Origin: Rhodohalobacter sp.
GTDB taxonomy: Bacteria; Bacteroidota; Rhodothermia; Balneolales; Balneolaceae
DNA length: 64,000 nucleotides
Assembly (NCBI RefSeq): GCF_041686455.1
Contig: NZ_JAWLDW010000004.1
Span: forward strand, 64 to 64,063
Direction of reading: 5' to 3'
A program made the position numbers and the translations under genes. The notes below the pieces were generated by a model, which did no database searches, was not told the DNA's origin, and saw only the letters and a program-made list of their open reading frames with translations. How positions within the stretch are numbered: the stretch's first letter is position 1; each line of letters starts with the position of its first letter. Below, one piece after another: positions 13,620 to 13,921 of the stretch.

Positions 13620-13703
13620 GATTTTTAATCAGTTATTTGATTTGAATGTTAAATAGGTAGAACAATCTGTCTTCTTAACAGACAGTATTAGCAAAGGAGA
13701 GAA

Positions 13704-13796
13704 TTATAAAGACGGGTATGCGTGGGGGCTGATAACAATATCTTCAGCTATTAAGCTGTAGCTGATTATTTGATATGTTTGTGTAATTTTTTCCAT
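13704..13796 (-). CDS. putative 30-aa leader peptide of tpl (MEKITQTYQIISYSLIAEDIVISPHAYPSL)
   Basis: Translated by hand: ATG at 13796, TAA at 13704-13706, A-rich upstream context, 3 Tyr, ends 84 nt before tpl. Below the ORF-track length cutoff. Confidence 0.45.
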   Translation of the reverse strand: MEKITQTYQIISYSLIAEDIVISPHAYPSL

Positions 13797-13921
13797 TCGT
13801 CTTATTTATAAATTTAATGTAGGATATTTGATACTTACTCTCCAATCAATTTTCAGTACAAAGCACGATTTGATATTTCGAACTGTTATGGTATCCTGAT
13901 GAACCACAATTCGTAATCAAT

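Follow-up and report, generated by a model that had tools for sequence, protein, structure and literature searches.

A conserved leader peptide upstream of the tyrosine phenol-lyase gene in Balneolaceae, a candidate tyrosine-responsive arrest peptide

Examination of a stretch of 64,000 nucleotides (nt) from Rhodohalobacter sp. (positions 64 to 64,063 of contig NZ_JAWLDW010000004.1, assembly GCF_041686455.1), hereafter referred to as the window, revealed a short, unannotated open reading frame (ORF) just upstream of tpl, the gene coding for tyrosine phenol-lyase (TPL). The conservation of this ORF ahead of tpl in related halophilic bacteria goes far beyond chance. We propose that its product, for which the working name TplL is suggested, is a cis-acting regulatory nascent (arrest) leader peptide for tpl which most likely responds to tyrosine, a reading to which we give a probability of roughly 55%. 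That the peptide acts in cis, whatever the signal, appears distinctly likely. The full proposal, namely a new arrest-peptide family independent of TnaC in which free L-tyrosine is sensed, the ribosome stalls at YP[S/P] and Rho termination is relieved, is offered more tentatively.

A search of 60 related genomes with the TPL protein, followed by a reading of the DNA upstream of each ortholog, showed a small ORF ending in the same motif ahead of tpl at 17 of 26 orthologous loci. A peptide profile was then run against whole genomes in all six frames. Exactly one strong match was obtained per genome (E values from 2e-17 to 3e-11), always a short way upstream of tpl, and the next-best match anywhere had E = 0.014, a gap of nine logs in E value which marks the leader as single-copy. 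This next-best match (18 bits over 9 residues of the core; G022:C50:198501-198527, in our own numbering of genomes and contigs) comes from a congeneric genome lacking tpl and is either a chance hit or the relic of a lost locus. With the whole order covered, the leader is present in 20 of the 283 Balneolales species genomes, and these 20 fall in 3 genera. An even sample of the phylum (401 genomes from 179 genera) gave matches in the family of the window only, in 3 genomes including its own, and of 80 TPL loci taken from many phyla, those of the Balneolaceae type alone carried the leader. A scan of metagenome contigs that started from the leader itself recovered 10 loci, with tpl 82-91 nt downstream in nine of them and the tenth contig ending earlier. 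All the named leader-bearing genomes are metagenome-assembled. One leader-bearing locus (L047, LKNA01000004.1) was submitted under the name 'Chitinophagaceae bacterium T5-Br10_B2g13'; the TPL encoded there is 94% identical to that of the window and groups with the window's Balneolaceae genus (G014), so that the taxonomy label looks wrong.

The leader family is practically invisible in current annotation. None of the 18 leaders that were aligned matched a Pfam family at E<=10 or a leader model of NCBIfam, and nothing relevant was found in Rfam at E<=1. Searches of 5.8 billion clusters and of 1.84 billion representative predicted proteins gave a single true match, an unnamed JGI protein of 30 amino acids. 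Full-text searches of the literature brought up no publication in which tyrosine phenol-lyase is connected with a leader or an arrest peptide.

The coordinates of the leader, of tpl and of the elements around them are collected in the table below. Judged by its protein matches, the gene at 13619..12234 is a tyrosine phenol-lyase gene and not a tryptophanase gene. Its product scores 776.6 bits on the NCBIfam equivalog TIGR02618 (cut-off 720.7) and falls below the cut-offs of the tryptophanase equivalogs of the same database; in a comparison with the PDB the top eleven matches are all TPL (658-646 bits), and tryptophanases reach at most 492 bits. A canonical intrinsic terminator (12214..12180) ends the gene, which is consequently predicted to be monocistronic. 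An earlier reading of the window made from its letters without database searches (the sequence-only reading) had described the ORF at 13796..13704 on the minus strand with the product MEKITQTYQIISYSLIAEDIVISPHAYPSL, and the ORF proved to be exactly as described. The other elements which it had listed, i.e. the pyrimidine tract TTCTCTCCTTTGCT, the hairpin CTGTCT/AGACAG and the tpl ATG (13619) 84 nt after the leader stop, were all found, and its assignment of the downstream gene agrees with both TIGR02618 and the PDB matches.

Table. Positions of the leader, of tpl and of associated elements in the window.
Feature	Position	Strand	Basis
Leader ORF (TplL, proposed name), 30 codons and TAA, encoding MEKITQTYQIISYSLIAEDIVISPHAYPSL	13704..13796	(-)	sequence and conserved orthologs
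Conserved core, codons 16-29, IAEDIVISPHAYPS	13710..13751	(-)	alignment of 18 leaders
-35-like hexamer TTGGAG of the predicted leader promoter	13840..13845	(-)	consensus match
-10-like hexamer TACATT, separated by 18 nt from the -35 and by 19 nt from the leader ATG	13816..13821	(-)	consensus match
Spacer from leader stop to tpl ATG, 84 nt	13620..13703	(-)	sequence
Pyrimidine-rich, G-poor tract TTCTCTCCTTTGCT, directly 3' of the stop	13690..13703	(-)	sequence
Hairpin CTGTCT-GTTAAGA-AGACAG, 6-bp stem, weak T tail (ATTGTTCT)	13667..13685	(-)	sequence
tpl, tyrosine phenol-lyase, 461 amino acids	12234..13619	(-)	TIGR02618, Pfam Beta_elim_lyase and PDB matches
Intrinsic terminator 3' of tpl, canonical, 16-bp stem and TTTATTT	12180..12214	(-)	sequence

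The constraint on the leader acts on the peptide and is concentrated in its last ~14 residues. Averaged over a stretch of 16 codons at the motif, entropy is 0.48, 0.35 and 1.40 at codon positions 1, 2 and 3, respectively. All four proline codons, all four alanine codons, both histidine codons and both tyrosine codons occur in the motif, and one of its serine positions alternates between AGY and TCN. Pooled Nei-Gojobori estimates for the 14-codon core gave proportions of nonsynonymous (pN) and synonymous (pS) differences of 0.15 and 0.79, the latter being saturated, and thus a pN/pS of 0.19; read in the other two frames, the same core DNA contains stops in 6/18 and 14/18 sequences and gives ratios above 1. 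Within the closest clade, pN/pS amounts to 0.44 for codons 2-13 and to 0.08 for codons 14-29. Conservation of the upstream ORF ahead of tpl orthologs was the check which the sequence-only reading had set beforehand, and the low pN/pS and the conserved Tyr and Pro bear out its expectation.

These figures also bear on the possibility that an RNA element, riboswitch-like or protein-binding, is conserved in this 5' untranslated region (UTR) and that the reading frame is incidental. Such an element is compatible with the location of the region towards the 5' end of the tpl transcript and with the hairpin downstream of the ORF, which shows compensatory changes. We nevertheless consider it exceedingly improbable. 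Variation falls mostly at third codon positions, with exchange between synonymous families, and this codon pattern excludes a reading based on RNA only; moreover, the frame is open and begins with ATG in all of the ~30 copies, while the other frames hold stops. The folding of the region is unremarkable as well and no Rfam family was matched. Compared with 300 synonymous recodings, the ORF has no extra stability (mean z -0.32, with 1 of 18 loci below 0.05), and the whole leader region does not fold better than its shuffles (z -1.19). The 7-bp stem TCAGCTA/TAGCTGA (13765..13744) and the second TCAGC which the sequence-only reading had pointed out within the ORF are indeed present, but since the ORF is no more stable than its synonymous recodings, the stem is explained by the codons.

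The core of 14 codons has the consensus I-[A/S]-x-[D/N/E]-I-x-x-[S/T]-P-H-A-Y-P-[S/P]. In the alignment of 18 leaders, I16, I20, P24, Y27 and P28 (numbered as in the window) are invariant, and H25 and A26 reach at least 90% conservation; D predominates at position 19, with N or E in the remaining leaders, and position 23 is S or T. Three leaders (loci L012, L021 and L156) have YPP in place of YPS. Outside the core almost everything is free to change: leaders range from 22 to 43 codons across loci, the N-terminus varies in both length and sequence, and the motif is separated from the stop by a tail of 1-14 non-conserved codons, with TAA, TAG and TGA all occurring as stop. Such a gradient of constraint is the pattern expected of a peptide acting in the exit tunnel near the peptidyl-transferase centre. 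Two features of the arrest-peptide class are thus present, namely a short 5' ORF in cis with tpl at every complete locus and selection on the C-terminal part of the peptide.

The main rival to a cis-acting peptide is a free micropeptide of 22-43 amino acids, co-transcribed with tpl and acting in trans by binding or modulating TPL or a tyrosine/phenol transporter. Conservation at the amino-acid level and strict co-occurrence with tpl fit any functional neighbour peptide, this one included. We regard it as quite unlikely, because only the last ~14 residues are constrained while the N-terminus drifts in length and sequence, and because the peptide contains neither a hydrophobic segment nor a known domain. 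The ORF is also always the first on the transcript, with its motif 75-100 nt from tpl, a spacing for which a peptide working in trans has no need. Finally, about 10 closely related tpl genes have no leader, from which it follows that TPL does not require the peptide.

A sigma-70-like promoter, whose start site is predicted from consensus matches, puts the leader ORF first on the tpl transcript, at its 5' end. Ahead of the leader ATG, 15 of 18 loci carry the pattern TTG(a/g)(t/a)G-N17/18-TA(C/A)ATT, at a distance from the ATG that ranges from 5 to 33 nt. In the clade of the window the predicted 5' UTR is ~13 nt long. At seven other loci (L011, L012, L013, L014, L015, L018 and L020) the -10 hexamer ends only 5-6 nt before the ATG, and a leaderless mRNA starting at the ATG of the leader is therefore predicted there. 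A block CAAATCGTGC at 13863-13872 (-), ~18-27 nt upstream of the -35, is kept in L001-L005 as AAATCGTGC and not in distant loci; it could be an operator, an UP-like element or part of the promoter of the divergent M90 peptidase gene (13922..14683), which is the upstream neighbour of the leader.

On the other side of the leader, 75-100 nt separate the end of the motif from the ATG of tpl in 23 of 24 loci (standard deviation 7.3), whereas the distance from the stop to the same ATG varies from 33 to 91 nt (standard deviation 13). It is thus the motif, and not the stop codon, that looks like the reference point. Taken together, the 5'-terminal position of the ORF, selection on the C-terminal part of its product, the freedom of N-terminus, tail and stop, and the fixed spacing of the motif are what leads us to expect a nascent peptide acting in the tunnel.

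The spacer has a composition which could be described as rut-like, that is, resembling a Rho utilisation site, and its function as such is putative. Pyrimidines make up at least 60% of the 30 nt that follow the motif in 14 of 18 loci, and the median C/G ratio in windows of 78 nt peaks at ~2.1 over the 3' half of the leader and the spacer, compared with ~1.0 further upstream and 0.6-0.9 within the tpl gene. The genome also codes for a homologue of Rho (E 9e-127). A hairpin begins 15-22 nt after the stop in L001-L006, L014, L050, L127-L136 and L143. Its stems are wholly different between loci and yet complementary (CTGTCT, CTATTCC, CTGCCCG, TCTATTC, GATCAAC and TTTGCAGC), and the hairpins of the loci that have them are rarely matched in shuffled sequences.

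A leader ORF followed by a hairpin is also the arrangement of a classical attenuator, in which the speed of the ribosome on Tyr codons decides on termination at the hairpin. Several observations make this very improbable here. There is one conserved Tyr codon (Y27) and no run of them, and selection bears on the whole 14-residue sequence rather than on the Tyr codon alone. The hairpin has no U-tract and is absent from a third of the loci, and no alternative pairing was detected beyond what is expected by chance for a coding sequence. By geometry, a ribosome at Y27 or at the stop would still be some 5 nt or more away from the hairpin, and the polarity of such a device would be wrong for a catabolic gene. 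Because the single Tyr lies within a conserved peptide of 14 residues and no canonical terminator follows, control of tpl is expected to depend on the peptide sequence.

Two ways in which the leader might act on translation of tpl were considered. Masking of the Shine-Dalgarno sequence, through pairing of CTCC in the pyrimidine tract with GGAG upstream of tpl, was rejected since GGAG is absent from the window and present in just some of the orthologs. Modelling of the footprint of a stalled ribosome did not consistently open the start region of tpl, which leaves translational unmasking without support.

On the basis of these features, and by analogy with the known systems discussed below, we infer translation arrest, a tyrosine ligand and an output through Rho. 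The proposed sequence of events would be as follows. The transcript would start from the sigma-70-type promoter, with the leader ORF as its first feature. During translation, the nascent core (I-x-x-D-I...S-P-H-A-Y-P) would act from within the exit tunnel, most likely in concert with free L-tyrosine, which would be held between the nascent chain and the tunnel. The ribosome would then arrest at or just after the YP[S/P] codons and cover roughly the first twelve nucleotides of the pyrimidine-rich spacer, so that Rho termination would be blocked and transcription or expression could continue into tpl, 75-100 nt downstream of the motif. When there is no signal, the ribosome would leave, the spacer would be exposed and tpl expression would be cut off, most probably by Rho. 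Where a hairpin is present, it may serve as a pause or a weak stop.

Tyrosine is proposed as the ligand because TPL degrades tyrosine and because tpl is induced by tyrosine where this has been studied (through TyrR and CRP). The arrest peptide could alternatively sense something else: phenol, another aromatic compound or translation capacity, the latter by way of the status of elongation factor P (EF-P) at YPS/YPP; constitutive stalling is also conceivable. Whatever speaks for a cis-acting peptide speaks equally for such an alternative, the ligand being deduced only from the gene downstream, and YPP, the motif found in three leaders, is of a type dependent on EF-P. A signal other than tyrosine is all the same unlikely in our view, considering the invariant Tyr within the motif and the fact that substrate induction is the rule in this enzyme family (tryptophan for tnaA via TnaC, tyrosine for tpl via TyrR).

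Several points weigh against a tyrosine-responsive arrest peptide acting in cis. It is solely the function of the downstream gene that points to the ligand, and a micropeptide acting in trans would likewise show conservation of its amino acids. The pyrimidine tract is absent in 4 of 18 loci, the C/G bubble is modest in the window itself (2.07, 7th percentile), and about one locus in three has no hairpin (L008, L009, L015, L018, L020 and L021). Neither the hairpin, devoid of a U-tract, nor the pyrimidine tract resembles a canonical terminator. Lastly, there are the approximately 10 closely related tpl loci without a leader. No degenerate motif was detected within 400 nt upstream of tpl at these loci, nor any adjacent regulator gene within 1.5 kb; the TPL tree is poorly resolved, and at least 3 changes by gain or loss of the leader are forced on it.

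Two further observations concern the surroundings of tpl genes. In the window, a microbial rhodopsin of 287 amino acids (Pfam Bac_rhodopsin, E 2.5e-41) is encoded at 14794-15657 (+), two genes upstream of the leader. In many Bacteroidota, tpl is found directly downstream of a tnaA-like gene in a tandem arrangement (L071, L072, L084 and L099-L121, from Chitinophagaceae and other metagenome-assembled genomes; also G037, G054 and G059), and in two Balneolales genera the tnaA-like gene and tpl form a divergent pair. A candidate second leader family in Chitinophagaceae (...WNWFVW...HKAILIMWRK) was discarded: it corresponds to the out-of-frame 3' end of the upstream tnaA-like gene, and 5 of its 12 copies contain in-frame stops. 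The out-of-frame 3' end of a tnaA-like gene can mimic a leader in this way and is a trap for screens of upstream ORFs.

To our knowledge, only a handful of metabolite-sensing nascent peptides have been described, TnaC (tryptophan) and SpeFL (ornithine) being the bacterial examples. If the proposal is correct, TplL would be the first nascent peptide that senses tyrosine and would join the very few bacterial amino-acid sensors of this kind. Ribosome-based sensing of aromatic amino acids would then have arisen more than once, and the two systems would provide a natural comparison for the discrimination of tyrosine and tryptophan in the exit tunnel. The leader would also be a possible source of a compact tyrosine-responsive genetic switch. 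The enzyme it is proposed to control is relevant to the formation of phenol and to the production of L-DOPA. The conserved leader further suggests that tpl, outside the enterobacteria, may be under a control which does not involve TyrR.

In the enterobacteria Erwinia herbicola and Citrobacter freundii, tpl is induced by L-tyrosine via TyrR and CRP, with three TyrR boxes (PMC10170061). The regulated enzyme gene is the same and L-tyrosine is the physiological inducer there. However, that system relies on a DNA-binding activator and has no leader peptide, whereas a conserved leader ORF and no adjacent regulator gene are found here. No mention of a leader or of attenuation is made in this review of tpl (PMC10170061). 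Attenuators of the trpL/pheL type are characterized by a codon run, mutually exclusive hairpins and a U-tract, all of which are absent from the tpl leader. SpeFL, whose output is Rho-dependent, combines sensor and stalling parts within a short peptide. It is summarised as an ornithine-sensing arrest peptide located upstream of speF (ref. 23 in PMC8429421). Going by that summary, the two systems have in common a metabolite-sensing leader placed before a gene coding for a catabolic or decarboxylating enzyme of amino-acid metabolism; they differ in that the sequences are unrelated, the ligand and the regulated gene are others, and the ligand of the tpl leader is inferred.

The closest known system is TnaC of E. 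coli and Proteus vulgaris. TnaC and Rho control the operon of the paralogous tryptophanase, with tryptophan as the inducer (PMC8429421, PMC10941005). In both cases a short 5' ORF precedes the gene of a pyridoxal phosphate-dependent beta-eliminating lyase, tpl and tnaA being paralogues, and the conserved residues are C-terminal and include an essential proline in TnaC. A spacer follows, on which Rho acts in the case of TnaC, where the inducer is the substrate of the enzyme. A tryptophanase-like paralogue with 46-51% identity to TPL also occurs in the genome of the window and in many relatives (G000:C213:7795-8397, loci L031/L044; also L032-L046), and no conserved small ORF resembling either TnaC or TplL was found upstream of the paralogues of this genus.

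The differences from TnaC are nevertheless such that, on sequence comparison, the tpl leader peptide falls outside the TnaC family. It has no match to the Tna_leader models. The critical residues of TnaC are Trp12, Asp16, Ile19 and Pro24 (PMC8429421), and free tryptophan is lodged between the peptide chain and the A752:U2609 pair (PMC8429421, PMC10941005). The tpl leader has no conserved Trp, its invariant residues being I16, I20, P24, Y27 and P28; D16 of TnaC sits 8 residues before P24, whereas the acidic or Asn position 19 of the leader sits 9 residues before P28. The resemblance between YSLIAEDIV and the TnaC segment WFNIDNKIV, to which the sequence-only reading had drawn attention, does not hold, as Y13 and V21 are not conserved and a conserved Trp is lacking. 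If P28 is taken as the residue in the P site, the invariant positions fall at -12 (I16), -8 (I20) and -4 (P24) and position 19 at -9; judging from spacing only, the TnaC residues at -12, -9, -8 and -4 would be W12, I15, D16 and V20.

The site of arrest would differ too. TnaC stalls at its UGA stop, read by release factor 2, with proline in the P site. In the tpl leader neither the stop codon nor the tail (1-14 residues) is constant, which makes elongation arrest at the motif more likely than an arrest at the stop codon as in TnaC. The spacer is ~85 nt long, compared with >200 nt in TnaC, and the ligand expected is tyrosine instead of tryptophan because the downstream gene is tpl and not tnaA. 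Of the suggested analogy with TnaC, homology has to be given up, as there is neither a model match nor a set of shared critical residues, while a peptide-dependent leader that works in a TnaC-like manner is now the best explanation. The tpl leader would thus add a peptide family not described before, and probably a new ligand, to a known kind of regulation, the control of a beta-eliminating lyase by a leader peptide.

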